From an uncultured Chloroflexia bacterium (GTDB lineage Bacteria; Chloroflexota; Limnocylindria; Limnocylindrales; CSP1-4): a stretch of DNA of 64,000 nt. The stretch covers positions 3,567-67,566 of the forward strand of contig CAVYBA010000003.1 in the NCBI GenBank assembly GCA_963766675.1. Reading direction: 5' to 3'. A model generated the notes under the pieces. That model did no database searches, was not told the DNA's origin, and saw nothing but the letters and a program-made list of their open reading frames with translations. The stretch's first letter is position 1, and each line of letters begins with the position of its first letter. Below are positions 49,327 through 64,000 of the stretch, piece by piece. The translations under genes and the position numbers were made by a program.

Positions 49327-50007
49327 ATGACTGGCGAGAATCAAGACGTTCCGTATCGAAACGTCACCGACACCGAATCGAAACCAGCACACTCGGCCGT
49401 CGCACCGGCTGCCGCAGCCGCCGCTGCGCGCCGGCCCGGCGGTCGTCCGCGCAGCGAGAAGGCGCACCGGGCGATCCTGGACGCGGCGCGTGCCGAGCTC
49501 ATCGAGGAGGGCTTCACGCGTTTCCGTCTCGAGCACGTCGCGGCACGGGCGGGGGTCGGAAAGGCCACGATCTACCGGCGCTGGCGGTCCAAGGAGGCCC
49601 TGGCAGGAGAGCTGCTCGCCGAACTCGCGGCGCCCCACATCGCCGTCGTCGACTCGGGTGACACGCGGGCGGAGCTGGCGAGCTGCACGGACAACGCGCT
49701 TCGCGCGATCCGCGACACGACGTTCGGGCCGGTGGTGCGGGCTCTCCTCTCCCAGATCGCGGCCAATCCTCGTCTCGGCGACCGGTTCCGGGCGACGGTC
49801 GTGCAGGCCAGCCGCGCCGAGATCACGCGCGTGGTGCAGCGGGGGATCGCCCGCGGCGACCTGCGCCCGGATGCCGACCTCGAGATCGCCACGGAGCTCC
49901 TCGTCGGACCCGTCTACTTCCGCCTGGTCTTTGGTGGCGCGCTCGACGACGCCCTGGTGGTCCAGGTCGCCGACGCCGTCATGGAAGCATTCGCCGTCCG
50001 TCGCTGA
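49327..50007 (+). CDS. TetR/AcrR family regulator (TetR_C_11-like)
   Basis: GRPRSE.AH.AILDAA, VAARAGVGKATIYRRW.SK; TATCAT 7 nt before ATG. Confidence 0.9.
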   Translation: MTGENQDVPYRNVTDTESKPAHSAVAPAAAAAAARRPGGRPRSEKAHRAILDAARAELIEEGFTRFRLEHVAARAGVGKATIYRRWRSKEALAGELLAELAAPHIAVVDSGDTRAELASCTDNALRAIRDTTFGPVVRALLSQIAANPRLGDRFRATVVQASRAEITRVVQRGIARGDLRPDADLEIATELLVGPVYFRLVFGGALDDALVVQVADAVMEAFAVRR

Positions 50008-50017
50008 GGGCCCCGAC

Positions 50018-50057
50018 ATCACGTCGACGACGATTCCAAGCGCAGGCCCCCGGCGTC
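50018..50057 (-). pseudogene. Relic of the 3' end of a PIN toxin gene paralogous to 53315-53737
   Basis: 36 of 41 aligned nt identical to 53340-53380; encodes PALGIVVDV. Confidence 0.6.
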
Positions 50058-50278
50058 CGTGCTTGGGGAGCTCGTCGATTCGTTGGGCTTCGAGTATTCG
50101 TCACAGGTCGGTGGTATTCCGAGCGAACGCGACCCCTAGCGGCGTGACGCGCGAGCAAGACCTGCCCGTGGAAATAGAAGGCGACCTGGGCTGCGGCGTA
50201 GGCGGTCAGGGCGGCGTGGCCCGCGCGGCTGCCGCCGGCGAGCGCGGTGAGCCCGACGAGGATCCACAGCTGGGTTGA

Positions 50279-50698
50279 CTACCGTCGCGCGCCGGGAACC
50301 GGCACCTGCCGGACCACGAGGTCGTCGATCCCTGCGAAGTCAGCGGGATTGCACGTGTAGAGCGGCAAACCGTTGGCCAAGGCGATAGCCGCGATCAATG
50401 CATCGAGCGCCCGGGCCGCCGGCTTACGCCCGGATCGGCGGAGCGACGACGCGACATGCCCGAACGTCCGAGCGGCAGCGGCGTCGAACGGGAGGGGGTC
50501 GAAGTCGGCTTCGGCTTGCTGAACGTGCGCGAGGCGGCGGGCGCGCTCGGCCGCGTCGTCCGTCACCAGCGGGCCGACAGAGAGCTCGGCGAGGGTGATG
50601 GCAGAGATCAGCGGGACATCGGGCAGCGCCGACGGATCTCCGATCCGCGGCAACAGGAGCAGCGTGCTCGTGTCAAGCAGGCCCTCGGGATCGCTCAC
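50279..50698 (-). CDS. vapC: VapC-like PIN domain toxin
   Basis: LLDTS, ISAITLAEL..G, DALIAA.A....L.LYT.NP.DF; GTGA overlap with antitoxin. Confidence 0.92.
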   Translation of the reverse strand: MSDPEGLLDTSTLLLLPRIGDPSALPDVPLISAITLAELSVGPLVTDDAAERARRLAHVQQAEADFDPLPFDAAAARTFGHVASSLRRSGRKPAARALDALIAAIALANGLPLYTCNPADFAGIDDLVVRQVPVPGARR

Positions 50699-50931
50699 AG
50701 ATCGGGTTCGATCACCGAGTCGAGGTCGCGCCGCAGCCTCGTCGGTTCGACTGCCGGTAGTCGCCGCCACCGCTCGAGAAGGGCTGCTGCGGACAGGCCT
50801 CGCGGCCGCAGGGGTCGCAACTCGGCGACCGCGCGACCGTCGCGGGTGACCGTCACGTGTCCGCCGGCCTCGACTCGGTCGACGACCTCGCCCCCGCGGT
50901 TGCGCAGCTCACGGATCGTCACGGTGTCCAC
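50695..50931 (-). CDS. Phd/YefM family antitoxin
   Basis: VTIRELRN.GGEV.DRVEAG..V.VTRDGR.VAEL.P. Confidence 0.92.
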   Translation of the reverse strand: MDTVTIRELRNRGGEVVDRVEAGGHVTVTRDGRAVAELRPLRPRGLSAAALLERWRRLPAVEPTRLRRDLDSVIEPDL

Positions 50932-50940
50932 AGTCCGAGT

Positions 50941-50956
50941 GTATCACCGGTGATAC
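50941..50956. promoter_or_regulatory. Perfect 16-bp palindrome, likely TA autorepression operator
   Basis: GTATCACCGGTGATAC overlapping the TACACT -10 element. Confidence 0.75.
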
Positions 50957-51015
50957 GATCGTCAAGTCGTCACCACGCCGGAAACGAGGATCAGTCCGGT
51001 GCGGTTAGGTCGGTT

Positions 51016-51037
51016 TGGTCGGGGCGAGAGGATTTGA
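51016..51037 (-). repeat. att-like site 1: 22-nt 3' end of tRNA-Pro
   Basis: Reverse complement TCAAATCCTCTCGCCCCGACCA = T-loop, T-stem, acceptor strand, ACCA. Confidence 0.8.
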
Positions 51038-51125
51038 CCCCGCGGAACGTAGCTCCTCGCGTCGCCCGAGGCGCTCCAAGAACGCAGGGAGACTCTCACC
51101 CAGCCAAAGTGGCCGGCCGGCCGAC

Positions 51126-52691
51126 CTACGGACCAAATACCTCGACCTCGCGCCAGGCCACCCACGACGGGCTGGCCACGGTTTCCACCCGGATCGCCTT
51201 CACACCCCGCATGGGTGTCGGCAGCACGTACCTCAGCACCTGCTCGTCCTCGGTCATCCCGTGAAACCGATGGAGCAGCACGAGCGAGCCGTTGCCGAGG
51301 CGTGCGTACAGCCGGTGGTCGGTGGGACCCGCCGGATACTGAGAAACGATCAGTCGGACGTCAGCGATTGTGTGGACACCGCCGAGGTCGACCTCGATCC
51401 AGCCGGGCGGCCCGGTGCCGCTGCTCCACAGCGTGTCGGGGTCGCCGTCCAGCGCGCCCTTGGCGGGCGACCCGGCAATCGATCGAGACCCCGTAGCCTT
51501 GTGGCCCAAGGCGAGATTCGCGGCGGCGCCCGGCACCGACCCGAGCGCCGCGTGATTTCGGAAGTAGGTGACGACGAGCCCGCTGAAGGTGGCGGGGTCG
51601 GTGTCTGGCAGCACCCGGTCGGGCTGGAGCATCCACGACTGGAATAGCACGTGGTCAGGGGCTGATCCGGCGGCCTCGAAGGCCTTGACGCGCGCGCCGG
51701 CAAGGGCGATCCAGGCCGCCCGATCAGTCTCGCTGCCACCGTTGTAGATCATGCCGATCGGAACGCCGCGTGACCTGGCAGACGAAGCCGCTTCCTGGGC
51801 GAGCGCGGGCCAGCCGCTACGCGACCAGTCGGCGTCAAGGTGGAGGAACGCGAACGGCTCGCCGCCCGCCGCACGATACGCGTCCAGCCACTCCCCCAAC
51901 CCGGCGGCTGACACAGGCGCCGGGAGCGGCTCGGTGTCACCGATGACGACAGCCGGGAAGACCGCACGCATCTGGTCGCGATAGGCCACCACGCCGGCGG
52001 CGATCCGATCCAGCGGCCAATGACAGGCATTCGGCCCGTCGTAAACGTGGGCGAAGAAGTAGGGCTCATCGAAGGCGATGATGTCGATGCGCCCGCCCGC
52101 GGCCAGGATCCTGGCCGCGATGAGCCGGCCCTCGTCCAGGCCGGCAAAGCTCTCCACGCCGGTCCCGCACCCCGAAGTGGCGTCCAGTGGCCCCGCCTCC
52201 ACGGCCAGGGCCATGCCTCGGCTGGCGATGCCCGCGACGGCCTCGCGCAGTTGATTGGGCGTGGCGTGGTAGGCCACCCACTCCCCGTAGAGCTTGTATA
52301 CGCCGATATACCGGGCGGCGGTGGACCAGGGCGCTCCAGCTTGGAACTGGGCCATGAAGTCGGTCGATCCCGTCCGGCCGGGCATCGGCGGCAGGGGCGC
52401 GAACCAGGCGAGCGGCCGCGCCGATAGGTCGACGGGCGTCGCGCCGGGCGTCGGGGCGGTTGACGGCGCAGATATCGCGGGCGTCGCCGCCACCACCGAC
52501 GGAACGATTGAAGCCGGCCTGCCCGACCCCAATGTGGTGACCGGAGGCTCAGCCGAACCTGCAGGAGCGCCGGTGGCCCGCGAGCGTGCCGGGGTGGACG
52601 TAGGCCCTGGGGCTGCGCAACCGGTTGCAAGTGCCACCATGACCGCGACGACCGCCAAGCTGCTTATGCCAACTCGCTTCGGCCTCGCCAT
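51126..52691 (-). CDS. Secreted/lipoprotein with putative glycoside-hydrolase-like domain and C-terminal discoidin (F5/8 type C) domain
   Basis: Start MARPKR, hydrophobic stretch ending LATGC, P/T/A linker, FDEPYF, ALDGDPDTLWSSG...WIEVDLG...EVEVFG. Confidence 0.75.
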   Translation of the reverse strand: MARPKRVGISSLAVVAVMVALATGCAAPGPTSTPARSRATGAPAGSAEPPVTTLGSGRPASIVPSVVAATPAISAPSTAPTPGATPVDLSARPLAWFAPLPPMPGRTGSTDFMAQFQAGAPWSTAARYIGVYKLYGEWVAYHATPNQLREAVAGIASRGMALAVEAGPLDATSGCGTGVESFAGLDEGRLIAARILAAGGRIDIIAFDEPYFFAHVYDGPNACHWPLDRIAAGVVAYRDQMRAVFPAVVIGDTEPLPAPVSAAGLGEWLDAYRAAGGEPFAFLHLDADWSRSGWPALAQEAASSARSRGVPIGMIYNGGSETDRAAWIALAGARVKAFEAAGSAPDHVLFQSWMLQPDRVLPDTDPATFSGLVVTYFRNHAALGSVPGAAANLALGHKATGSRSIAGSPAKGALDGDPDTLWSSGTGPPGWIEVDLGGVHTIADVRLIVSQYPAGPTDHRLYARLGNGSLVLLHRFHGMTEDEQVLRYVLPTPMRGVKAIRVETVASPSWVAWREVEVFGP

Positions 52692-53269
52692 CGCACCCTC
52701 CTTCTCGACGCGCGTCGATGATGCGCCAGGATGGCGTCGCCCTGATGCGACGGGCTCGAGTGCTCGGCTCGGCGGCGTCGTGAGATAGCCCATCTCGCGC
52801 CCCACCGCCACCGCTCACGCAGGCCGCACGTCAGCGGGCGCCTTCGGCCGCCTCGCGCTCATGTCTCCGGAGAATCCGACGATCGTCTTCCTGATCGCGA
52901 TGGTCGGATATCTGGCCCGGGTGATGGAGAGGGAGCGCGCGTCGCGGGTCGAGCCGCGGCTCGCAAGACACCGAGGAGGTGCGGCATTGAGCGTGACCAT
53001 CTGAGCGATAAGCGCGCCGATTGGCATCAAGGTCAGCCGGAGTGGCCAGTCCAACTTTGGATGGCGTCGAACGCCGTGCTGGTTCTGTTTCGCCGTCGGC
53101 GCAAAGGGTACTGGCCCACCGAGTGGTCCTGCGAATGTCCCGAGCCCCCCGGCCGGCTTTCCAGGGGTACATCTGGGTTGGACTGCCAAGAGGGCGAGCT
53201 GATAGTGAATTGGGTGACGGACGAGCGATGGAGTGCTGGCGCTCCAAGCCGACCGCCGAAGAGGTCGTT

Positions 53270-53285
53270 TGGTCGGGGCGAGAGG
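53270..53285 (-). repeat. att-like site 2
   Basis: TGGTCGGGGCGAGAGG; inside a 37-bp perfect repeat shared with site 6. Confidence 0.8.
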
Positions 53286-53314
53286 CTTAGCCCCCAGACG
53301 AACCGGGGCGTCGC

Positions 53315-53737
53315 TTATCCCGGGTCTTGCCCAGGCGAGATCACGTCGACGACGATCCCGAGCGCTGGCCACCTGGCGTCTGTCGTGACGATCCTGTCGG
53401 CTCCCAGCACCTGCGCGGTGGCGACGACGAGGGCGTCGGGAAGGCGCAACGCCCGCCCGTGCATGGCTCGCAAGGCGGCGGCAGCGGCAGCGATCGCCCG
53501 CGAGGCTGGTTCGACCCGAGCCGGCAGTGCATCGACGAACCGGTCGGTCGTCGCGACCGCCTCCGCACCCCGCCGGGATGGGGAGACGAGGCATTCGGCG
53601 TATGTCGAGGCTGGAAGCACGAGCTCGTCGCCGCGCCGCCGGGCCGCCGTCAGGGCCTCCCGTGCCTGGGCATGGTGCGGGTCGCCGGAGTCGAGGATGG
53701 CGATCACGAGCCCGGCGTCGAGGACAGTCAGTCCCAT
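53315..53737 (-). CDS. PIN domain toxin (VapC-like)
   Basis: VLDAG.VIA.LD..D.HH, YAECLV, LRLPDALVVATA, IVTTD. Confidence 0.9.
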   Translation of the reverse strand: MGLTVLDAGLVIAILDSGDPHHAQAREALTAARRRGDELVLPASTYAECLVSPSRRGAEAVATTDRFVDALPARVEPASRAIAAAAAALRAMHGRALRLPDALVVATAQVLGADRIVTTDARWPALGIVVDVISPGQDPG

Positions 53738-53976
53738 TCGTCGCGCAGGGCGTCAAGGTCGCCCGGCTCGAAGACCCCGGTGAGCGCGCCGGCGAATTGG
53801 GTCACCGGGTCGGCGTCGAGAATCAGGAGGACCTCGCCCGGACCACGTACCTCCGCGCGAAGGGCATCACCCGTCCGCAGTCCCGCGCCGCGAAGGGTCT
53901 CGACGGGCAGCGTCACCTGGTGCTTCGCACTGACACGCGTATACCCGCGTCGGCGTTGCTTGACTCGTTCCTTCAT
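53728..53976 (-). CDS. AbrB/MazE/SpoVT-type antitoxin
   Basis: TRVSAKHQVTLP...LR.AGLR.GD.L; overlaps the PIN gene. Confidence 0.88.
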   Translation of the reverse strand: MKERVKQRRRGYTRVSAKHQVTLPVETLRGAGLRTGDALRAEVRGPGEVLLILDADPVTQFAGALTGVFEPGDLDALRDEWD

Positions 53977-53986
53977 GAGTCAAGCA
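53957..53986. promoter_or_regulatory. 10-10-10 inverted repeat straddling the antitoxin start codon, likely operator
   Basis: TGCTTGACTC-N10-GAGTCAAGCA. Confidence 0.7.
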
Positions 53987-54073
53987 TAGTGCCATGGACG
54001 CGTCCCGGCAATGCCAGTCAATCCGAGGCACGTGCGGGGACCGAGGTGCGGCCCGGTGGCGTTGGGTCGAGTC

Positions 54074-54092
54074 TGGTCGGGGCGAGAGGATT
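54074..54092 (-). repeat. att-like site 3
   Basis: TGGTCGGGGCGAGAGGATT. Confidence 0.8.
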
Positions 54093-54232
54093 AGAGCCGA
54101 CACGGCGTCGCCAGTTCGGATCATCCCGGTGACGAACGTTCCGAGCTACGTCGACCGAGCCTCGGAGATCGCCTAGGTCTGCGACGATAAGCGGGTACCG
54201 GCAAGGGGCGCGCGCCTGCAGGCTCGGCTGGG

Positions 54233-54610
54233 TCAGGTTGCCTCGGGACCGTCCAGGTTGACCGTCACCGGGCCCTGGCCGACGCGGACGACGACGCCGT
54301 CGTTAGGGTCGGCACCGGCGTTGCCCTCGCGGTGCACGACGCCCTTCGGGATCAGCACGAAGTCCCCGGGCGCGACTTCGATCCGCTCGGACCCGCCGGG
54401 GCCAAACTCCACGAAGAACCGGCCGCGGGTGACGTGCCCGTACGTGTCGTGGCCGGGGTGGACGTGCCAGTCCAATTCCTGGTGCGGGGTGTTCTCGATA
54501 CGACCGACCCAGACGTGCCCATCAGCGAACGCCTCGAAGCGCGTGACGCCCGGCGTAGCGGTCTCGACGCCCAGGAGCTGGTCCTTCGTGACCAGGGTCG
54601 GCCGGTCCAT
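54233..54610 (-). CDS. Cupin domain protein
   Basis: WHVHP.HDTY, PGDFV.IPKG.VHRE; GGAGG RBS. Confidence 0.88.
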   Translation of the reverse strand: MDRPTLVTKDQLLGVETATPGVTRFEAFADGHVWVGRIENTPHQELDWHVHPGHDTYGHVTRGRFFVEFGPGGSERIEVAPGDFVLIPKGVVHREGNAGADPNDGVVVRVGQGPVTVNLDGPEAT

Positions 54611-54693
54611 GTTCCACCCTCCCTGAGCGAGCCGCGGCGAGGCCGAAGCAGATCCCGGAGTGTACTAAACGCGGGTAGATCGTTTGGTACTTC

Positions 54694-54708
54694 TGGTCGG
54701 GGCGAGAG
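54694..54708 (-). repeat. att-like site 4
   Basis: TGGTCGGGGCGAGAG. Confidence 0.78.
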
Positions 54709-54921
54709 ATAGCGCCAACACGTTCCAACTGTCCATCAGGATCGATGGCGGACGCGTCCCGAACCGTGCGTCGGACATCGCGTAGGCAGCATCCGCAGAG
54801 ATAGGGACTGGCGTTAGCGGCGTGCCCCCGACGGACTCGAACCCCCCAATGGCAAGGCATTGTGCTGGACTCCACCTCGAACTCGGATGAGTGGCGGCCA
54901 TCCGGGCGAGGGCTGAGTCCT

Positions 54922-55593
54922 TCAGGGTGATTGCAGGAGAAGATGCCAGTACGCCCAGTCCTCGTGCGCCTCCGTGTCCTGCTCGACAACGGCGAGACGT
55001 TCGGCCTCGACCCAGCGCATGACCTGGTCACGGCCGGGGTAGTAGTGGTAGCCCGCAACATCGCCTTCGATGACCTCGCCCCTGACAACCGGCAAGCCCT
55101 GCCCGACGAGGTCACTGAACGCCTCGTCGACCACGGCTTCAGCGACCTCCTCGACGGTCAGATACAGATGGCCGCCCGGGCGTACGGCACGATGGAGATT
55201 TGCGATGACAAGCGGCCAGTCCTCAGGGAAGACGTTCTCCATCGCGTCGATGGTCATGACGGCGTCGAATTCGGCCTCGAAGCGCAGCTCCTGGAGACCG
55301 ACCTGGTGGAGGGCGTCGGCGATCCCTCTCGCCCGGGCCTGTTCGAGCATCCCCACCGACTGGTCGATGCCGACGACACGGCGACCGGCAGCCGCGACCT
55401 GCGGGAAGTACTGACCCGTCCCGCACGGGGCGTCGAGCACAAGCCCGTCAGGCGGGCACGTCGCCACGAGCCGCTCGACGAACCGGTGCTGCGTGTCGAC
55501 CCGGTATGGGTGCTCGTCGTACGTTCGAGCCTCTGCGTTGTACGCAGCCTCGACCGCCGCCCGTCGTTCAAGGAGCCACGCCCGGCGGTCCAT
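54922..55593 (-). CDS. Class I SAM-dependent methyltransferase
   Basis: VLDAPCGTG, GIDQS.GML, FDAV..IDAME, PGG.LYL. Confidence 0.9.
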   Translation of the reverse strand: MDRRAWLLERRAAVEAAYNAEARTYDEHPYRVDTQHRFVERLVATCPPDGLVLDAPCGTGQYFPQVAAAGRRVVGIDQSVGMLEQARARGIADALHQVGLQELRFEAEFDAVMTIDAMENVFPEDWPLVIANLHRAVRPGGHLYLTVEEVAEAVVDEAFSDLVGQGLPVVRGEVIEGDVAGYHYYPGRDQVMRWVEAERLAVVEQDTEAHEDWAYWHLLLQSP

Positions 55594-55739
55594 GTCGCAC
55601 ATCTCCCATGCAATGGCGGATCCAACTTGTCGAGCCACCATCCTCCCACGTCCGGATCAGACGTCTGGGCACCTTGTGGGCAGCGGCGGGCAGGCTCTGG
55701 GCACATACACGCGTCACTTGGGCAGCGTCTGGGCACCTC

Positions 55740-56314
55740 GACGCTCTGCCCTGGGCACTCCCGTCCGCGACCCCGACCAGACCAAAGGGATGGCGCGGTC
55801 GCCGCGACGGGTAAGGGGTGCGGCCGGAAGGTCTACGAGGACGCCATTGGCAAGGTCCTGGATCGAGTTGCGCTCGGAGCCGGCTCGCTCACCCAGGTCG
55901 TCGGAATGGTCGCCGTTTCTGCGTCATCGCCTGATGAGCAGGCGCTCGTCCGCACCGAGCGGGAGCGTGACGCTGCCGTGGCGCGATACCGGCGGGACCG
56001 TGACAGCGCGTCGCTCGATCAGGCGATGGCCCGGCTGGACGCCGAAGAGCGGGAGGCTCGTCGCCCTCGCGACATCGATGGGGTCCCCGCCGATGTGGCG
56101 GTCCGCTACCTCCGGGAGCTGACGACGACCTAGAAGAAGGCAGACGGCGGCTCGGGTCGGCGGATGCTGGCGGAGGGCCCTGTGCAGCCGGATCGAGGTG
56201 TTGGGCGCAAGGCAGGCCACGATCCACCTCAGCGACGCAGCGGTGGCGTACGGGTTCGCGGCGGCGATCCCTGACCGGCTCGATGTGACAGTTGGGAATG
56301 GTCGGGCGAGAGGA
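55740..56314 (+). pseudogene. Decayed C-terminal part of a probable large serine recombinase, running into att site 5
   Basis: YEDAIGKVL..., coiled coil RTERERDAAVARYRRDRD, in-frame TAG at 56131-56133, +1 frameshift, then LCSRIEVLGARQATIHLSDAAVAYGFAAAIPDRLDVTVGNGR(GER). Family call from recalled resemblance; catalytic domain absent. Confidence 0.55.
56299..56314 (-). repeat. att-like site 5 (one G deleted)
   Basis: TGGTCGGGCGAGAGGA followed by cttGCCCCGACA. Confidence 0.75.
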
Positions 56315-56336
56315 CTTGCCCCGACAAACCGGGGCG

Positions 56337-56604
56337 GCCGAGGGCAACCCGCTCTTCGTCGAGCAGTTCGTTGCGTACATCTCCGGACCAGGCCGTCCCT
56401 GACGGAAGCCGTCTTGGCGACCGGACACCGCCCGATCTCGTCATCCCGCCGACGATCGGCGCACTCCTCGCGGCGCGTCTCGATCGCCTGCCGGATGTCG
56501 AGCGCCGTCTCCTCGAGCGGGCTGCCGTCGTTGGGCGAACGTTCTGGCATGTGCTGCTGCTTGGGCGGATACGTCCCGAAACGTGCGATCGCGCTGACGG
56601 ATGA
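56337..56604 (+). pseudogene. Internal fragment of a STAND ATPase/adenylate cyclase gene
   Basis: AEGNPLFVEQ..., IPPTIGALLAARLDRLP..ERRLLERAAVVGRTFW; no start or cyclase domain. Confidence 0.75.
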
Positions 56605-56660
56605 TCCGCCAGCGCGATCCGGGCCCGGCTGGAGGCCGTCCTCGGCCCCTGCTGGCATGT

Positions 56661-57014
56661 CTAGCCGTAGACGAGGACCTTGTAACCCGCCTTCGTGACC
56701 AGCTTGAGGCTCATCCACTGGCCCGACACGGTTGTCACGTTGACTCGTGGCGTGACCAGCTGGGCGCTGCCCCTATCGTCCCGGTTCAGCTGATACGCCG
56801 CGACGTTGCCGGTGACGAGAACCGCCAACACCAGGGTGCCGACGGGTCCACTGAGCCGGCGAGCGAGTCGCGCCGGGGTTCCACGCCGCTGCGTTGTTGC
56901 GATCCCTGCTGACATCATCAGCCTCCTGCCCTTTGTTGCGATAGCCGCGAGGAACCGACCTCGGCGGCGGATGGGACGGTGGACGGCGGGGTTCGAGTTG
57001 ATCTGCGTGTCCAT
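56661..57014 (-). CDS. Hypothetical protein with single TM/signal segment
   Basis: AAGGAGG before ATG 57014, second GGAGG before an internal ATG; GTLVLAVLVTGNVAA. Confidence 0.5.
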   Translation of the reverse strand: MDTQINSNPAVHRPIRRRGRFLAAIATKGRRLMMSAGIATTQRRGTPARLARRLSGPVGTLVLAVLVTGNVAAYQLNRDDRGSAQLVTPRVNVTTVSGQWMSLKLVTKAGYKVLVYG

Positions 57015-57097
57015 GGTTTGCCTCCTTGAGGGCGTCGTCGGCCAATGCCGGGTCGCCTGGATGGAATTGCTGTTGGTGGGATTCGGCTGGGCTGGGT

Positions 57098-58384
57098 TCA
57101 GGGCGCGCGTCGTTGCCAGGTCGGGTCGCTGATCGCATTCCAGGGCGCCGTGCGGACCGGCCCGCCGGCCGCGTCCAGGATCAACATTGGCGTGCCAAGC
57201 GTGGCTGCCGCGGGCCGGCCGAGGAGTTCGGAATCGTCAGGTGACCAGAGCCAGGCCGCGCAGCAAGCCGTCTCGACCGATCCGGCCGGGGCGATCTGCA
57301 TGCCGACACCGCTGCCGTCCGCCGGGACCACCCAACCCCGGACGTCGTCCTCGCCGCGCGTGAAGCCTTGGGCGAGGAACAGCCGCGTGCCGTCGTTCGA
57401 CCAGGTCGCATGGGCATTCCAGACGGCGCCGACCGGTGACGGAATCTCGCGGTCGCCGGTCCCGTCGGCGTTGACGACGTGCGTCTTCGCCGACAGTCCG
57501 TCCGTCGTGTTGCCCCACGTCCAGTAGGCGACCTTCGATCCGTCGGGCGACCAGCTCGGCCCCGCGAGGTCGAAGCCGGGCTCCATGTTGACGATCTGGC
57601 GTGTCTGGTTGGTCGATCGATCGAGGACGAACAGGCCAGTCCTGGCGCCTCGGCCGATGAACAGGATTTCGTTGCTGTCGGGCGGCCGGTAGGTTGGTTC
57701 CTCGGCCAGCATCCCGACGTCGAGCTGGCTGGCGCCACTGCCATCGGTCCGGGCGATCGTCATGCCCGAGGTGGTGGCGATCAGGAGCTCTCGTCCGTCG
57801 GGCGAGAACTTGTAGCGTTCCCAAGCTCGGCCGCCGGTAGCGGTCGCGAGACTCACCGGGGTTGGAGTGACCAGGGTGAGCCCGGTCCCATCGGAGCGGG
57901 CCACGTAGATTTGGCTGGTGCCGTCAGCCGCGAGCCGCGCGAACGCGATGTGCGTCCCGTCGAGCGAGAAGCGCGGGCCGCGGTCCGTCTCCGGGCCGGT
58001 GATGATCGCCGTCGCCGTGCCCGTCACGGGATCGGCGGTGTAGATGTCGTCGCCGGCGTCGTAGGCAATCACGCCATTCCGTGCCAGGCCGAACGGGGCC
58101 GGAACGCGCTGCTGGCTGCCGACGTAGACGATGGCGGCTGCGAGGAGGGCGAGAAGAACCACGATCGCCAGGACGAAGGACCGCAATGGCAGGCGTGGCA
58201 CGAAGACGGGCTGACGAACGGCGTCAACCATCGGGAGCCACCTTTCCAGGAACGTCCAGGCCGGTCGTTGCCGGATCGTGGCGGTGGTGGCCAGGACGTC
58301 GTCGATGTAGGCGGGATACGGCCCCATCGCGAGATCGCCGAGGATTTCGGGCAGGTCGCGGGTGAGCCGACGTTCGGTCGTCAT
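57098..58384 (-). CDS. Single-pass membrane protein with extracellular TolB/PD40 beta-propeller, probable anti-sigma
   Basis: One TM, repeats PRFSLDG..IAF, FSPDG, PSWSPDGSKVAY, WSNDG, WSPD; coupled to ECF sigma. Confidence 0.85.
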   Translation of the reverse strand: MTTERRLTRDLPEILGDLAMGPYPAYIDDVLATTATIRQRPAWTFLERWLPMVDAVRQPVFVPRLPLRSFVLAIVVLLALLAAAIVYVGSQQRVPAPFGLARNGVIAYDAGDDIYTADPVTGTATAIITGPETDRGPRFSLDGTHIAFARLAADGTSQIYVARSDGTGLTLVTPTPVSLATATGGRAWERYKFSPDGRELLIATTSGMTIARTDGSGASQLDVGMLAEEPTYRPPDSNEILFIGRGARTGLFVLDRSTNQTRQIVNMEPGFDLAGPSWSPDGSKVAYWTWGNTTDGLSAKTHVVNADGTGDREIPSPVGAVWNAHATWSNDGTRLFLAQGFTRGEDDVRGWVVPADGSGVGMQIAPAGSVETACCAAWLWSPDDSELLGRPAAATLGTPMLILDAAGGPVRTAPWNAISDPTWQRRAP

Positions 58385-58941
58385 GCGATCTGCCCTCCCG
58401 CGATTGACGGGGTCGACGTCGGTTCGGTCTCGATCGCGACTCGCATCGCGACCAACGCGCGATGCAGCCGGGACTTGACCGTTCCGAGCGGGATCGAGAG
58501 GGTCGCCGCGACGTCGGTCAACGGCAGCCCCATGTAGTAGTGCAGGACGACGATCGCCCGGCCTTGCGCGTCGAGCCCGCGGAGGACTTCGTCCACGAGC
58601 TGCCGATCGGCGTGAGCGATCGAGCTGTCCGGCAGAGCCGGCTGGTGAAGCGGCGTGAGCTCGACCTCGATGACCCGGCGGCGCCTGTGGCGGACCAGGT
58701 CGAGGCAGGCATTGACGGTGAGGCGATAGAGCCAGGCATCGAACCGGTCGGGATCTCGAAGCTTCCGGAGATCCCGCCAGGCGCGGATCAGCCCCTCCTG
58801 GACGGCGTCGCGTGCGAGCTCCGGATCCCGGAGGATGAGGCGAGCCGCCTGGTCCAGCCGCACGACGGCGGCGCGAGCGAGGTCGGCGAAGGCGTCATGA
58901 TCGCCTCCCCTTGCTCGCTCCACGAGCCATCGCTGGTCCAC
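58381..58941 (-). CDS. ECF sigma-70 factor
   Basis: GDHDAF, DAVQE..IRAWR.L..LRDPDRFDAWLYR..VN, GTVKSRLHRA. Confidence 0.93.
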   Translation of the reverse strand: MDQRWLVERARGGDHDAFADLARAAVVRLDQAARLILRDPELARDAVQEGLIRAWRDLRKLRDPDRFDAWLYRLTVNACLDLVRHRRRRVIEVELTPLHQPALPDSSIAHADRQLVDEVLRGLDAQGRAIVVLHYYMGLPLTDVAATLSIPLGTVKSRLHRALVAMRVAIETEPTSTPSIAGGQIA

Positions 58942-59173
58942 GGTCGCCTCGCATGTCGGACACGGCCACAGCGGTCGTGCCTCATAGCCTATGGCGACGA
59001 GATTCGGTTTTCGGTTCTTCGCGCAATCGGCCCTTACGGCTCAAGGCGCCCGGAGATCGGGATGGCGGCGGGTTCGACGCTGTGACAGGTCAGAGTCAGC
59101 ACCGTTTTCGCTCGCCGAGTGTCCCATCGACGGGCCAGAATCGAGGTGCGGTGCGGTATGGTCCGAGGGAGTT

Positions 59174-59189
59174 TGGTCGGGGCGAGAGG
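59174..59189 (-). repeat. att-like site 6
   Basis: TGGTCGGGGCGAGAGG; 59171-59207 identical to 53267-53303. Confidence 0.8.
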
Positions 59190-59575
59190 CTTAGCCCCCA
59201 GACGAACGACATAGTTGGCACGGTCCGAGTTGCGCCGCGACCTGCCGCCGAGCTACCTGCCTACGTGGCTTAACCGGGGTGCGGCCGCAGCAGTTGGTGT
59301 GACCCGCAACACTGCTTGGTTCCTCTCCCAGGGGCCGCACCGCGGGCATCGAATGAACGAATCGAGCCATGCCGCACGACGAGCCCGGCAGCCGCGCGGA
59401 CTCGGGTGCTGGCACTCAGTCCGGTCCCCGGCCGACCTGCTGACCGGCGCGCCCTAACACCGTGCATCACGATAATCTCCACTGTCGTTGCAGCCGATTC
59501 GGCCGGTTCCATTCCGTTCGCTGGCGGACGCGGGTTCCCGTCGATTGGAACGTGGATCCTCCGATTCGGGCGACC

Positions 59576-59745
59576 TCACGGGAGCCGAAAGGTCGGACTC
59601 GGGGCGGCACCCTGCGACACGCAGGACGTATCGAGACCCGTCGTCGTTCCGGCGTCGACGAAGCTCGCGATCACTGCCGGACCGCACCCGAGGTGCCCGA
59701 CCACGTGCTCCTGGGCGGGCATGACCACGATCAGGCTGTTCGGGT
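59576..59745 (-). pseudogene. C-terminal fragment of a TAP-like alpha/beta peptidase
   Basis: PNSLIVVMPAQEHVVGHLGCGPAVIASFVDAG...LDTSCV; no N-terminal part. Confidence 0.55.
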
Positions 59746-59892
59746 TCTGCGATGGCACCGCGGTGAGGTTGGCGGGCGGATCCTGCGGGTTCCTGCGCGC
59801 CCGCGCGCTCCAGGCACTCGCGGGTGCTCGCCAGGCGGTCATGGAGGCCGAAGTCAGCGAGCTCACCGGCGTACCCAAGGGCGAGCGGCCGG

Positions 59893-60315
59893 ATGGGCGG
59901 TCTTCGACTGGCTGGAACGCTCTGGGCCATGGCCGGCGTGGTGTGTGCCGGCCTTCTGTCGTTCGTCCTCATCGGCGAACACATCAACGATCTCGGAGCC
60001 TTGTTGGCGAATCTCGCGTTGCCCGCGCGAGTGCTCGGTGGCGCGCTGGTGGCCTTCCTCATCGGCGGCCTGCTGCTGTCCCGCCCGGGCCCTAGCGTGG
60101 TCCGCTGGTCCAGCCTCGCGGGCATCGCGTGGCTCATCGCATTCGGGCCGCTCGTCGTGACGACCGTCGCGGCGGCGCTGGGCGGCAATGAGTTCGGCCC
60201 CGTCGTGTCGAGCAGCCTGATCACCGGACTCGGCACCGCCGGCGCGGTCGTCGGCCGGCTGTCCCGCACGGCGAGGTACGACGACCGACTACCCGCCGAG
60301 GCCGAACCGGACTGA
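59893..60315 (+). CDS. Hypothetical 4-TM membrane protein
   Basis: Four hydrophobic segments; start uncertain. Confidence 0.5.
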   Translation: MGGLRLAGTLWAMAGVVCAGLLSFVLIGEHINDLGALLANLALPARVLGGALVAFLIGGLLLSRPGPSVVRWSSLAGIAWLIAFGPLVVTTVAAALGGNEFGPVVSSSLITGLGTAGAVVGRLSRTARYDDRLPAEAEPD

Positions 60316-61179
60316 CAGCATGAGCCCGGCGACTAGCGAGTAGGCCGCGAACGGCAGCAGGGTGTTCGTCCGGAAGTATCGCTCCAGGAAGCGCACCGAC
60401 AGGTAGGCGGCGACGGCCGCCGCCATGCTGCCGGCGAGGACCTGGAGCTGGACGCCGTCGCCGTTCGGCCCGAGCAGGTCGGGGATCTTGTAGAGCCCGG
60501 CGGCCAGGATGATCGGCGTCGCGAGCAGGAACGAGAAGCGCGCGGCGTCCTCGTGGTCGAGGCCGCGCACGAGCCCCGCGACCATCGTGACCCCCGAGCG
60601 GCTGATGCCTGGCAGGAGCGCGAGCGCCTGGGCAGCCCCGATTCCGAGCGCCTCGCGGGCCTCCAGCGTGTCGAGCCGACGGTCGCCGGCGGCGGTGCGC
60701 GCGTGGCTCGCGATCGCCCGCCGGGCGACGCCGCGACGCCGGACCAATTCGCCCACCAGGAGCAGCACGCCGTTGGCGACGAGGAACAACGAGGCGGCGA
60801 GGGGCCGGGCGAAGAGGACCCGCAGGGCGTGCTCCGCGAGAAGGCCCACGAGGCCGGCTGGCACTGTCGCGATCGCGAGCAGCCAGATCAGTCGCTCGTC
60901 GGGGGTCTCGATGCGACGCGTGCGCAGCGTGCGGACGCCGGCGGCCAGCAGCCGCGCCCAGGTGGTGCGGTAGTAGAAGAGCAGGGCGAGCGCTGTGGCG
61001 ACGTGCAGGCCGACGAGGAACGCCAGCCAGTACGACTCGGCGGCCGATTGCGCCGCGACCACGTCGTTCCAGCCGAGCAGCGCCGGCAGGAGCACCGAGT
61101 GCCCGAGACTGGAAACCGGGAACAGCTCGGTGACGCCCTGGAGGAGGCCGAGCAGTATCGCCTGGGCGTAGGTCAGCAC
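60289..61179 (-). CDS. uppP: Undecaprenyl-diphosphate phosphatase
   Basis: LGLLQGVTELFPVSSLGH, AQALAL.PGISRSG.T, RFSFLLATP. Confidence 0.95.
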   Translation of the reverse strand: MLTYAQAILLGLLQGVTELFPVSSLGHSVLLPALLGWNDVVAAQSAAESYWLAFLVGLHVATALALLFYYRTTWARLLAAGVRTLRTRRIETPDERLIWLLAIATVPAGLVGLLAEHALRVLFARPLAASLFLVANGVLLLVGELVRRRGVARRAIASHARTAAGDRRLDTLEAREALGIGAAQALALLPGISRSGVTMVAGLVRGLDHEDAARFSFLLATPIILAAGLYKIPDLLGPNGDGVQLQVLAGSMAAAVAAYLSVRFLERYFRTNTLLPFAAYSLVAGLMLSVRFGLGG

Positions 61180-61396
61180 GGGCGGAGCCTACCCGGTGTC
61201 GATCCTGGCCTCGCGTATCCGAACCCGACGGCGGCCCGCGTCCAGGGCGTGATCTCGTCCCGCAGGCGTAGCACTGGGGCGAATAGGAATCGCCGCCTAC
61301 CGGCCCGACGCTACGGGCCATGACGGCGCGCTGGTCCGATCCACACCGGCTCCCGGGCTCCCCTGCCTGCTGCGACTCCGCGTTCGCGCCGCCGCA

Positions 61397-62110
61397 TCAG
61401 ACGAAGAACGCGAGCTCGTCCCGGAATGACATGTCGGCAACATCTGCCGAGCCGCGCCCCAGCGCATCCTCCGCGATCGCCGCGGGAAGCATCTGACGCG
61501 CGAGCGTCGCGAACTGCCACGCCTTGTACCGTTCCATCGTCCAGCCGCACTCAACCGTGAACGCGAGATAGGTCTCGGCGCGGTTGATCCCGAACAGCAG
61601 GTCGAGCGCCAGCGATGGGTCGAGGCCGTCGCGCAGCTCGCCCCGGGCCGCGAACACCCCGATGATCTGGCTCATCCCCGCCCGCCGCCGCGCCACCACG
61701 CCGCGCCACGCCTGGTCGACCTCGGGGTCCACGGACGCCGCTGCGTTCACCGCCCCCAGCAGCGGGCCGACGCGCGCGTAGATTTCGTTGCTGTGCTCGA
61801 CGATGAGCGCGAGGCGCCGCGACCCCGTCGGGGCCTCGATGACCCGGCCGATCCAGGCCCGCTCCATGACGACCTCGGGGGAGCCGGGCTCGCCACCGGC
61901 GATCTCGAGTGAGGCGATCAGCAGCTCCGCCTTTGTGTGAAAGGTGAAGTAGACGGTCTGCACCGCCACGCCGGCGTCGCGGGCGACGGCCTCCATGGTG
62001 GTCGCCGCGTAGCCCTGCCCGGAGAAGCGTCGCAGTGCCGCCTCGGCGATGCGCCTGCGGGTTGCCCTGGCGCGATCTCGTCGCGATCGGGGCTTGACAT
62101 CGTCGGTCAC
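61397..62110 (-). CDS. TetR/AcrR family regulator
   Basis: Start GTG 62110; TRRRIAEAA...F...GYAATT...VA.DAGVAVQTVY..F.TKA.L. Confidence 0.9.
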   Translation of the reverse strand: MTDDVKPRSRRDRARATRRRIAEAALRRFSGQGYAATTMEAVARDAGVAVQTVYFTFHTKAELLIASLEIAGGEPGSPEVVMERAWIGRVIEAPTGSRRLALIVEHSNEIYARVGPLLGAVNAAASVDPEVDQAWRGVVARRRAGMSQIIGVFAARGELRDGLDPSLALDLLFGINRAETYLAFTVECGWTMERYKAWQFATLARQMLPAAIAEDALGRGSADVADMSFRDELAFFV

Positions 62111-62130
62111 GTGGCCATCATACTGCACTA

Positions 62131-62144
62131 CGTCACTAGTGACG
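62131..62144. promoter_or_regulatory. Perfect 14-bp palindrome, likely TetR operator
   Basis: CGTCACTAGTGACG between divergent tetR and SRPBCC genes. Confidence 0.75.
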
Positions 62145-62200
62145 CACTCTAGACAAATGATCAGCGCGGACCCGCAGCCCGGGGATGGAGTGAGAGCTAC

Positions 62201-62650
62201 ATGACGGCGGTCATCGAGAACACCGTGGACATCGCGCGCTCGCCGGAGGACGTGTTCGACTACCTGTCTGACCAGGGCCACGAGGTCGACTGGAACCCCG
62301 ACTGCCTGCGGATGGACAAGCTGACGGACGGCCCGGTGGGCGTGGGCACCAGGTTCCGGGCGAAGTGGAAGCAGGGTCCGGAGGTGATCACCGAGTGCAT
62401 CCGGTACGAACGGCCGCGGACGTGGGCCTACGAGAACGGCGGGCCGATCAGCGTCGTCCTGACGGTGAGTCTGGAGCCCACGGCGGCGGGCGGGACGCGG
62501 CTGACGTCGCGCGGCGAGTGGACCCCGCACGGCTGGATGCGGCTCGGCTTCCCGGTCTTCGCCCGGATCATGCGCCGCGCCGAGAAGGGTGTCATGGCGA
62601 ACTCCCGGCGCGCCCTCGAGGAGCACCGGGACCAGAAGCCGGTGGCCTGA
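62201..62650 (+). CDS. SRPBCC (polyketide cyclase/dehydrase-like) family protein
   Basis: IARSPEDVFDYLSD...W, GPVGVGTRF. Confidence 0.85.
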   Translation: MTAVIENTVDIARSPEDVFDYLSDQGHEVDWNPDCLRMDKLTDGPVGVGTRFRAKWKQGPEVITECIRYERPRTWAYENGGPISVVLTVSLEPTAAGGTRLTSRGEWTPHGWMRLGFPVFARIMRRAEKGVMANSRRALEEHRDQKPVA

Positions 62651-62652
62651 GG

Positions 62653-63015
62653 GTGGTGACGGCCGCAGCGCTCTGCTCGATCTTCCTCGGGCTGGCCTTC
62701 GGGCTGCCGGCCGTCTTCGGCACGCTGCACTTCGCGCGGACCGGCGAGGTCTGGACGTTCATGGGCTTCCCGACCTACGGCGGGGGCCCGTTCGAGCAGA
62801 TCGGCCTCCCGACCTCGGTCCCGCTGCTGCTCGGGTTCGTCTGCGTCTGCCTGGCTGAGGGGGCCGTCGGGGTGGCGCTGCTGCTGGGCATCCCGCGCGT
62901 CGCGACCGTCAGCTACCTGCTCCTGCCCTTCGAGTTCGCGTACTGGATCGGATTCGCCCTCCCGTTCGGCCCGCCGTTTGGCATCGCCCGAACGGTCCTG
63001 CTGTTGCTCGCGTGA
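62653..63015 (+). CDS. Hypothetical membrane protein
   Basis: 3-4 TM segments, directly follows SRPBCC gene. Confidence 0.65.
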   Translation: MVTAAALCSIFLGLAFGLPAVFGTLHFARTGEVWTFMGFPTYGGGPFEQIGLPTSVPLLLGFVCVCLAEGAVGVALLLGIPRVATVSYLLLPFEFAYWIGFALPFGPPFGIARTVLLLLA

Positions 63016-63044
63016 CTCTCGGCTGCCCCGTTGGTTGACGTAGG

Positions 63045-63170
63045 CATCCGGCCGAGCACCGTGAAGCGCCACCTCGCCGACCTGCGTGCCCGATCGGGGC
63101 CTCACCAGCGAGCAGCTGATCTACCGGGGACGGGCTGAGGGCTGGCTTGCGGTGGCGGGCCTTGAACCCG
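63045..63170 (+). pseudogene. Frameshifted fragment of a LuxR-type HTH gene
   Basis: GIRPSTVKRHLADLRARSG...EQLIY. Confidence 0.5.
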
Positions 63171-63203
63171 ACCAAGGCGACGACAAAGGAACGAGATGGT
63201 GAC

Positions 63204-63557
63204 TCAGCTTGCCTTCAGTAGTCGGTCGCCCGTCGCGTAGACGAAAAGGTGATAGAAGATCGAGAGCAGGCCCAGGAGGAACCCCGGCGCCGGCTGCCCG
63301 ACGCTCCACAGCGCGACGGCGGCAAGACCAGAGACCAAGAGCTCCTGAACGAGGCGCAGCGCCTCCGCGGCCCGGCCCGCGGAGTGGAAGTCGACAAGAC
63401 CCCAGAATCCGAACCCGACGAGCGGTGCTCCGAGGGCAAGCCCGATCTTGGTGAGGGCCCCGGAACCTGTCTGCCACCCCCAGTACGCAAGACCGACGAC
63501 GATCCCGGTCTCCATCACCGCTCGCATCGCGAGGATGAGCAGCTGAGTTCGCGACAT
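63204..63557 (-). CDS. YrdB/DUF2568-like membrane protein
   Basis: R...E.G....LAYWG, GAPL....WG, LRL..ELL. Confidence 0.7.
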   Translation of the reverse strand: MSRTQLLILAMRAVMETGIVVGLAYWGWQTGSGALTKIGLALGAPLVGFGFWGLVDFHSAGRAAEALRLVQELLVSGLAAVALWSVGQPAPGFLLGLLSIFYHLFVYATGDRLLKAS

Positions 63558-63633
63558 CGATCCAGCTCGCGGTCGCTCGTCGGCGGATTGGTGGAGGTTC
63601 CGGTCAGGACCGCGGCTCTCCACCTCCGTGCGC

Positions 63634-64000
63634 TCAGCCATGGCTCGGCGCCCGATCGCCCGTCGGGTGGAGGCGGCTCCACCAACCGCCTGCGAGGAGC
63701 ACCGTGCCGGGCACGATGCCGGCGACGACCGCGATCACGGCTGCCGAGCGATCGAGCCCCGCTGCGACCAGACCGATCGCACCGCACACGCTGATCGCCG
63801 CCCCGATCCAAACCATGACCGACAGCCGCCAGATCACGTAGAAGCCGAAGAAGTGGACGCCGACCACAAGCGAGATCCACGCAATCGAGGCGTCGTGGAT
63901 GCCGAGCAGATCATTGAGGACGACGAGCCCACCGACCGCGGCGGCAACTTCGGCCGCGACGATGAGCCAGTACGACCGGCTGAATCCGACACTTGGCGGA
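63634..64000 (-). CDS. Hypothetical membrane protein, 5' end outside the window
   Basis: Open frame with several TM segments (WISLVVGVHFFGFY). Confidence 0.6.
   Translation of the reverse strand, partial: PPSVGFSRSYWLIVAAEVAAAVGGLVVLNDLLGIHDASIAWISLVVGVHFFGFYVIWRLSVMVWIGAAISVCGAIGLVAAGLDRSAAVIAVVAGIVPGTVLLAGGWWSRLHPTGDRAPSHG

Follow-up and report, generated by a model that had tools for sequence, protein, structure and literature searches.

What assembles a row of short gene-bearing units, each bounded by the same fragment of a tRNA gene, when no recombinase gene stands among them? This question is raised by a 64,000-nucleotide (nt) stretch (hereafter the window) of contig C3 of a metagenome-assembled genome (MAG) from an uncultured Chloroflexota bacterium (GCA_963766675.1, contig CAVYBA010000003.1; C3:3567-67566). 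The MAG, which we call G000, comprises 3.2 Mb in 7 contigs, has a GC content of 70% and is 87% complete. A first-pass annotation had described the row as an integron-like array of cassettes, captured serially at tRNA-Pro by a recombinase acting in trans, with eroded remains of larger islands as the alternative. Our analysis indicates that the array is probably an accretion of large serine recombinase (LSR) elements that integrated into the 3′ end of tRNA-Pro(CGG).

The repeats are copies of the tRNA-Pro(CGG) 3′ end

The 15-mer TGGTCGGGGCGAGAG, which we refer to as the core, occurs in five exact copies beginning at window positions 51016, 53270, 54074, 54694, and 59174. In dinucleotide-preserving shuffles, the mean count was 0.91 when up to two mismatches were allowed, and 0 of 100 shuffles reached five. 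A sixth copy, at 56299, is degenerate: it reads TGGTCGGG-CGAGAGG (TGGTCGGGCGAGAGG) and has lost one G. Thus, of the six copies initially taken to be identical, five are exact and one carries a 1-nt deletion. A site profile built for nhmmer recovered all six window copies and no other match on C3, and the sole further match to the 15-mer in the genome is tRNA-Pro(CGG) itself, on contig C4 at c[8459-8535]. The 3′ end of this tRNA, ...CCTCTCGCCCCGACCA, is the reverse complement of the 15-mer, confirming the origin that had been proposed for the repeats. Likeness among the copies outreaches the 15-mer, by ~32 nt leftward and 24-100 nt rightward, and the block of identity between sites stops sharply at position 15/16. 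We number the window sites S1 to S6 and each unit after the site on its left, with unit 0 lying left of S1. Fuzzy matching and nhmmer revealed no core copies left of S1, nor did they locate the left boundary of unit 0. An Rfam scan of 50000-59600 gave no relevant match.

Contig C3 terminates in ...GGTGCGGTTCGGTGCGGTTAGGTGATGTTT, the same arm that precedes several cores (the P(d) arm, see below), while C4 starts with GCGAGAGGACTTGCCCCGACAAACCGG, the second half of the core followed by the same P′ end as at site S5. The two contigs therefore appear to abut at a seventh core, S7, at ~70191 in window numbering. The intact tRNA-Pro(CGG) lies 8.46 kb further on and 19.5 kb right of the last window copy, that is, to the right and outside the window, where it had been expected. 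So arranged, the array has seven units of 0.6-11 kb (2254, 804, 620, 1605, 2875, ~11017, and ~8467 bp), the first five in agreement with the 620-2875 bp of the first-pass annotation; unit 6 extends 6.2 kb past the window to the end of C3. Sizes change along the row in G000, with five small distal units followed by two large ones nearest the tRNA. In units 1-5, every intact gene is encoded on the minus strand, in agreement with the earlier statement that cargo lies on the tRNA-sense strand, and all genes of unit 7 are on the plus strand. Direct repeats of the target 3′ end stand at the unit boundaries and the intact target gene stands at the array end, a layout that is also present in relatives.

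The sites are associated with a family of large serine recombinases

We asked which recombinase accompanies the sites. A search for the Phage_integrase domain (PF00589) in G000 and 12 relatives gave no match within or adjoining an array, and the only two tyrosine recombinases of G000 are encoded on C2, at 1.66 and 1.70 Mb, distant from the array. What occurs at unit boundaries, in relatives and metagenomes, is an LSR of ~500 aa with a Resolvase domain, of which the window holds a C-terminal relic, in unit 4. Every LSR or LSR relic found in relatives reads toward, and ends at, a core or the tRNA, as do the homologues of the unit 4 relic in G001, G002, G005, G010, G027, G028, and G032. The G010 LSR occupies one frame of 492 aa with a single TAG, contains a Resolvase domain (E 3e-11), and ends in ...KEGRSGRGER, in which GRGER is encoded by the core itself. 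Truncated relics in relatives begin at residues 280, 319, 320, 343, 381, 382, 438, 446, 450, and 452, and each keeps its 3′ end.

Database searching with the LSR returned 704 homologues; those listed are mostly 490-550 aa, and several are labelled Ca. Limnocylindrales. A PDB sequence search gave no match. Intact 519-aa LSRs whose genes end inside tRNA-Pro(CGG) are present on two independent contigs and are followed by cargo for restriction-modification or defence. The family is therefore alive, despite the broken copies in relatives. In G000 (87% complete), we found no Resolvase or Recombinase domain apart from the unit 4 relic. Since the LSR is absent from this assembly, the array is probably frozen, that is, static at present in G000. 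Of the intact tRNA and intact recombinase that had been suggested as a check, this genome thus yielded the tRNA but not the recombinase.

The attachment site appears to lie within the recombinase gene

The C-termini of the LSR homologues are of two types. Some end in ...GRGERI and a stop, the open reading frame (ORF) entering tRNA GGATTTGA (the integrated state); others continue from ...GRGER into a conserved tail of 26-37 aa, such as DSPATNDLPITMRLAEPPEP..LRSA. The conserved tails, examined in homologues P0001-P0120, often end in Ala (...LRSA, ...KIA). The C-terminus is thus state-dependent, being short beside the tRNA and extended when the gene is joined to the P′ end. Because LSR ORFs either end in the core or tRNA or continue into the tail, the phage-type attachment site, attP, would lie within the LSR ORF, and integration would consequently swap the enzyme's C-terminal tail. 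Such a swap could set directionality or stability and is reminiscent of integration-dependent immunity in mycobacteriophages.

In the mechanism that we propose, the P half of attP would consist of the last LSR codons followed by a perfect copy of the 3′-terminal 15 nt of the tRNA, which encodes G-R-G-E-R on the strand opposite the tRNA, while the P′ half would encode the detachable C-terminal tail. Crossover at the right edge of the 15-mer, probably at ~G15-G16, would exchange the tRNA 3′ end for the element's copy and move the displaced old 3′ end to the far side of the insert, so that repeated integration would stack units. For 6/8 sites here, the best ungapped symmetry is centred at 15/16, a common centre that is suggestive. 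Inspection of the flanks of class-B sites in relatives likewise revealed perfect 13-nt inverted arms, CGATGAGGTAGGT / ACCTACCTCATCG, centred at 15/16.

The flanks of the sites bear on this model. To the left of every core, in the G-R-G-E-R frame, the flank resembles the last 8-14 LSR codons: for example, ...GAVRYGPREF/GRGER and ...KESGRGER compare with ...GPIRCSIGRY/GRGER and ...EGVLSTKEGQS/GRGER of LSRs (slash, start of the core-encoded residues). The likeness is short and only suggestive of derivation from LSR gene ends. At 7/8 right ends here, merely these 8-14 LSR-like codons are kept. Hence the claim that four of five units lack any trace of a recombinase applies to recognisable remnants, which are confined to unit 4, but not to the left flanks of the cores. 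To the right of two cores, detached tail exons can be read. The first ~100 nt of unit 3 encode, in the GRGER frame, GRGERIRADTASPVRIIPVTNVPSYVDRASEIA and a stop; this exon shares 64% identity with the C-terminal 33 residues of the intact LSR P0001, and its stop is at the equivalent position. Unit 6 opens with GRGERLSPQTNDIVGTVRVAPRP..., which resembles LSR P0002.

One type of left flank is widely shared. The P(d) arm, ...GGTGCGGTCCGGTGCGGTC.G.TGGAGTC followed by the core, is present in five units here and in seven in other MAGs, for a total of 12 from at least seven genomes. In all 12, conservation starts abruptly at -32 from the core, and nothing LSR-like was found upstream of this point. None of the junctions carries an attC-type site; they consist of the 15-nt tRNA-Pro 3′ copy and arms that appear to derive from the LSR gene. 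As also no PF00589 protein was detected near the arrays, the absence of IntI and attC reported in the first-pass annotation holds.

Two further features of the recombinase genes were observed. In many LSR genes, a degenerate version of the core (..GGRGKT..) recurs internally, ~80 nt upstream of the genuine copy (for example, L107 9580-9675), and has the appearance of a duplicated att-derived segment within the coding tail. Within the LSR gene region of G010 (C4, L052/L058), ARAGORN calls an inverted tRNA-Pro(CGG)-like gene at 2228-2304.

Unit contents

The features of the array, in window coordinates unless stated otherwise, are as follows.

50279-50770, minus strand: PIN toxin of unit 0 (Pfam PIN)
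50695-50931, minus strand: Phd/YefM antitoxin of unit 0 (Pfam PhdYeFM)
50984-51015, plus strand: P(d)-type arm at the right end of unit 0, from alignment with other P(d) arms
51016-51030, plus strand: site S1, exact antisense copy of the last 15 nt of tRNA-Pro(CGG)
51031-53269, minus strand: unit 1, beginning with a class-B P′ end
51126-52811, minus strand: sole gene of unit 1, encoding a secreted 561-aa protein with an F5/8 type C domain
53270-53284, plus strand: site S2, exact 15-mer
53285-54073, minus strand: unit 2, beginning with a 24-nt class-D P′ end
53315-53737, minus strand: vapC of unit 2 (Pfam PIN)
53728-53976, minus strand: vapB of unit 2 (Pfam MazE-like)
54042-54073: P(d) arm of unit 2, from arm alignment
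54074-54088, plus strand: site S3, exact 15-mer
54075-54176, plus strand: class-E P′ end of unit 3, a detached LSR tail exon (GRGER, 28 aa, and a stop)
54233-54610, minus strand: cupin gene of unit 3 (Pfam Cupin_2)
54694-54708, plus strand: site S4, exact 15-mer, with A rather than G at position 16
54922-55641, minus strand: class I S-adenosylmethionine-dependent methyltransferase gene of unit 4
55630-56317, plus strand: LSR gene relic of unit 4, interrupted by a single TAG and a single frameshift, covering residues ~270-492 of 492 and running into S5
56299-56312, plus strand: site S5, core with a 1-nt deletion
56322-56600, plus strand: two-piece frameshifted fragment of a large ATPase-type regulator gene, right after the class-G P′ end of unit 5
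56661-58941, minus strand: cargo block of unit 5, including a gene for a 117-aa protein
57098-58384, minus strand: PD40 beta-propeller anti-sigma-like protein of unit 5
58381-58941, minus strand: extracytoplasmic function (ECF) sigma factor of unit 5
59142-59173, plus strand: P(d) arm at the right end of unit 5, from arm alignment
59174-59188, plus strand: site S6, exact 15-mer
59175-59273, plus strand: class-D P′ end of unit 6, a detached LSR tail exon (GRGERLSPQTNDIVGTVRVAPRPAAELPAYVA and a stop)
59189-64000 (window part): unit 6, ~11.0 kb, running to the end of C3
C4 1-8458, plus strand: unit 7, encoding a ParA-like ATPase, a 773-aa membrane protein, a hybrid kinase, and response regulators

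Several units hold one or two intact genes, and pseudogene debris is present in units 4, 5, and 6. The regulator fragment of unit 5 was recognised by tblastn to paralogues on C1 and C2, and a sigma/anti-sigma module of the type in this unit also occurs in array units of G001 and G030. Unit 6 encodes BacA/UppP, TetR, SRPBCC, DUF2568, membrane proteins, a metallo-beta-lactamase-fold protein, and an adenylate cyclase, together with fragments of an IS481-type transposase and an oxidoreductase; it contains no recombinase gene. That the units are now non-autonomous, as previously stated, is borne out, as no unit of G000 encodes a recombinase. Over 626 nt, the toxin-antitoxin (TA) module of unit 0 shares 92% identity with its counterpart in another Chloroflexi MAG (L100), which likewise adjoins a P(d) arm and core. 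The left edge of this module is the stop codon of the PIN gene rather than an att site; the homology between the two MAGs stops exactly at this codon, with unrelated DNA beyond it in both.

We also noted other sequences within the units. In unit 4, a tRNA-like 3′ fragment (54815-54885, with a GGACTCGAACC... T-arm motif) lies in the same orientation; the stretch at ~54820-54880 was not recognised by ARAGORN or Rfam, and the fragment may be what remains of a tRNA carried by an element or of a different att site. In unit 6, segments 61277-61382 and 63030-63175 are 80-86% identical to stretches within array units of G010, G015, G030, and L100. The former is non-coding. The latter, from our reading of the sequence, encodes a small helix-turn-helix (HTH) of the LuxR/GerE type (...STVKRHLADLRARSG...) and recurs immediately behind the P′ end of a unit in G015, which makes it a possible regulator of the element.

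The hotspot recurs in relatives

We surveyed 61 related genomes for the hotspot. Many contain same-strand clusters of cores adjoining tRNA-Pro(CGG), and the hotspot recurs across the genus and the order, which is probably Limnocylindrales. Synteny is kept 5′ of the tRNA in all relatives, and the sequence 3′ of it is different in each genome; in relatives, both the genes of C4 1-8458 and those to the left of the array prove accessory or scattered. The core spacings in relatives, together with the seven units of G000, gave 33 units, of which 13 are <3 kb and seven measure 10.78-11.02 kb. These ~11-kb units (in G015, G043, G032, G040, G007, and G027, and unit 6 of G000) come from seven genomes of two families. 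We considered whether they represent a single element family and rejected this, as only those of G007 and G015 are related and the cargo consists of ordinary metabolism genes; the clustering of sizes may reflect chance or a size constraint.

Small units in relatives contain one or two intact genes, on either strand, encoding TetR, TetR with MFS, a methyltransferase, a DHFR-like protein, SRPBCC with TetR, or sigma/anti-sigma factors; two units of ~0.6 kb are empty. In G001, G008, and G011, the tRNA-adjacent unit is small (1-2.4 kb) and recombinase-less. G010 encodes a VapBC homologue in inverted orientation with respect to its core. Elsewhere, homologues of the unit 3 cupin belong to the ordinary chromosomal gene set: of 35 from metagenomes, 34 lack a nearby core and lie outside any array. 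We found no exact-protein record for this cupin, and the only contig that encodes the exact VapC has the same arrangement and breaks at the repeat. In G005, four same-strand cores lie at C5:741563-785611, with no tRNA in the 13-kb stretch scanned around the last two; tRNA-Pro(CGG), with an adjoining LSR, is on another contig (C2:210243). This set of cores could have arisen by translocation, could be an orphan array, or could reflect misassembly.

Competing explanations for the array

Together, the unit 4 relic, the tail exons, the LSR-like arms, and the pseudogene fragments show that the units descend from recombinase-bearing islands and have undergone deletions. They are stripped derivatives of LSR islands, some of them (units 4, 5, and 6) plainly decayed. 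A rival account is that full LSR islands were cut down in place by ordinary deletions and that the recombinase-less units were never mobile. Consistent with this, LSR relics remain in unit 4 and in relatives, where they start at residues 280-452, pseudogene fragments abut the site ends in units 5 and 6, and tail exons are detached in units 3 and 6. The small size of the five distal units compared to the two nearest the tRNA, the ordinary chromosomal setting of cupin homologues, and the orientation of the G010 VapBC homologue, opposite to its core, also fit such erosion. However, random deletions should leave variable ends, while 7/8 right ends retain just the 8-14 LSR-like codons, and the 12 P(d) arms, from at least seven genomes, are all cut at -32. 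Moreover, unit 7, which is nearest the tRNA and presumably the youngest, already lacks any LSR trace beyond the arm, and the tRNA-adjacent units of G001, G008, and G011 are likewise small and without recombinase. Thus, pure random erosion fits the unit ends poorly, and we regard in-situ erosion as possible but unlikely to be the whole explanation. Of the eroded-island alternative, by which the first-pass annotation allowed itself to be refuted, descent from larger islands is supported by the relic, tail exons, arms, and pseudogenes, but uniform trimming is not explained. Instead, the uniform 32-nt end in 12 units suggests that some recombinase-less units spread in trans. The P(d)-ended units probably belong to a lineage of recombinase-less mini-islands, resembling cis-mobilizable elements (CIMEs) or the pseudo-elements of the staphylococcal cassette chromosome (SCC), that the LSR of another element could move. 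The recombinase in trans that had been postulated is compatible with this shared end, but G000 offers no candidate for it. Our reading of the sequence is that the array mixes stripped islets, which may still be LSR substrates, with plain wreckage.

Does the array then constitute a dedicated platform, in which single-gene cassettes are captured, reordered, and expressed through a recombinase acting in trans? The many small units with one or two intact genes tight between conserved ends, the wide sharing of the minimal P(d) arm, and the occurrence of the TA pair of unit 0 next to such an arm and core in a second MAG would agree with such a platform. Yet G000 has no resident recombinase, we found neither an attI nor a common promoter, cargo orientation is mixed in relatives, and the unit ends are LSR gene leftovers rather than cassette-specific sites. 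Further, no cassette was found to recur with identical ends in a second context (the TA module has no att site at its left edge), and units 4-6 contain debris. We therefore consider a dedicated platform improbable, and the proposal of an integron-like system, which lacks a platform-linked recombinase and attI/attC, is not upheld; the serial integration at tRNA-Pro that it included is retained, as tRNA 3′ copies mark the boundaries and are associated with LSRs. We hold somewhat more room, though still tentatively, for a serine-recombinase gene-capture system of the Limnocylindria at tRNA-Pro(CGG), with minimal units that LSRs of autonomous elements, acting in trans, would integrate, excise, and exchange among genomes. 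Such a unit would comprise a P′ end of ~25-100 nt, one or two genes, a 32-nt P arm, and the 15-nt tRNA copy; if true, this would be a functional analogue of the integron that uses a different enzyme and a tRNA gene as docking site. Lastly, P4-like islands with a tyrosine integrase could have made the repeats, since direct repeats of a tRNA 3′ end are their textbook signature and 15 nt suffice for an overlap region. As the 13 genomes have no Phage_integrase domain in or beside their arrays, and LSR genes and relics abut the cores throughout, we rejected a tyrosine integrase as the agent and judge this origin very improbable.

Several observations weigh against accretion of LSR elements with mobilisation in trans. 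The dyad symmetry per site (12-13/24) is not significant in this GC-rich genome, where the background mean is 11.3 and the 95th percentile 14. LSR half-sites are typically ~25 bp, and the conserved P(d) arm and core together span ~47 nt, beyond this length; no particular LSR is linked to P(d)-type ends. None of the 16 relatives searched has a fully intact LSR, each copy having a stop or frameshift. We found no alternative arrangement of the locus in the same species, the adjacency of C3 and C4 at S7 is deduced from the contig end sequences, and so is recombination at the sites from sequence comparison.

Comparison with known systems

According to general descriptions, serine integrases avoid tRNA genes and have only a few bases in common between attP and attB. 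In a survey of mycobacterial prophages, tRNA sites belong to tyrosine integrases (PMC10654092). The LSR family associated with these arrays, a large and living one with hundreds of members in soil and groundwater Chloroflexota, targets a tRNA gene, appears to regenerate the tRNA 3′ end from within its own coding sequence, and leaves behind long arrays, made up mostly of tiny units without a recombinase.

The closest precedent is the ssrA islands of Dehalococcoides, probably a member of the same phylum as our host, Chloroflexota, in which islands lie in tandem downstream of a single-copy RNA gene, as here. A direct repeat of ~20 bp, copied from the tmRNA 3′ end, flanks each island (McMurdie et al. 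2011, PMC3146451). DsiB, a serine recombinase of ~540 aa, is encoded at one island boundary, and about half of the islands lack an integration module and were proposed to be cis-mobilisable (PMC3146451). Our array differs in that the target is tRNA-Pro(CGG) rather than tmRNA, no DsiA/ParB/Mom-type module was seen, the att site is inside the recombinase ORF, and many units are far smaller (0.6-3 kb, with one or two genes).

SCC and pseudo-SCC elements of staphylococci stack in a similar manner at the 3′ end of an essential gene, rlmH (orfX), through the large serine recombinases CcrAB and CcrC. Integration regenerates the gene and leaves short direct repeats at the junctions, and in composites, stacked members without recombinase can be moved by Ccr in trans. 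The array resembles these in serine-recombinase stacking at the 3′ end of an essential gene, but its recombinase lineage, host, and target are different, and the ccr gene is not at the extreme end of the element overlapping att, as the LSR gene is here. A parallel between SCC and the ssrA islands has been drawn (PMC3146451). Our likening of DsiB and Ccr to the array LSR is by description.

CIMEs of the ICESt1/ICESt3 type are att-flanked units without a recombinase that arise by tandem integration and decay and can be moved by a neighbour's enzyme. Units 1-7 similarly have att ends on both sides and no recombination or transfer genes inside. However, CIMEs are defined with tyrosine integrases and conjugative partners, and there are no conjugation genes here. 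The array also resembles an integron, as a stack at one site of small, mostly single-gene, recombinase-less units that are co-oriented in the window. Unlike an integron, it lacks IntI, attI, an attC fold or motif, and a common promoter, and its unit ends are remnants of a serine recombinase gene.

Thus, the array is an unusual variant of known island pile-up and not a new integron-like machine. It differs from its precedents in its tRNA target, in an attP inside the recombinase ORF with a state-dependent tail, and in the prevalence of one-gene units with minimal ends. It extends accretion of the ssrA and SCC type to tRNA genes and to a poorly known class, supplies natural attP/attB pairs, and provides a concrete case in which to ask whether one-gene recombinase-less units are captured as such or are wreckage.

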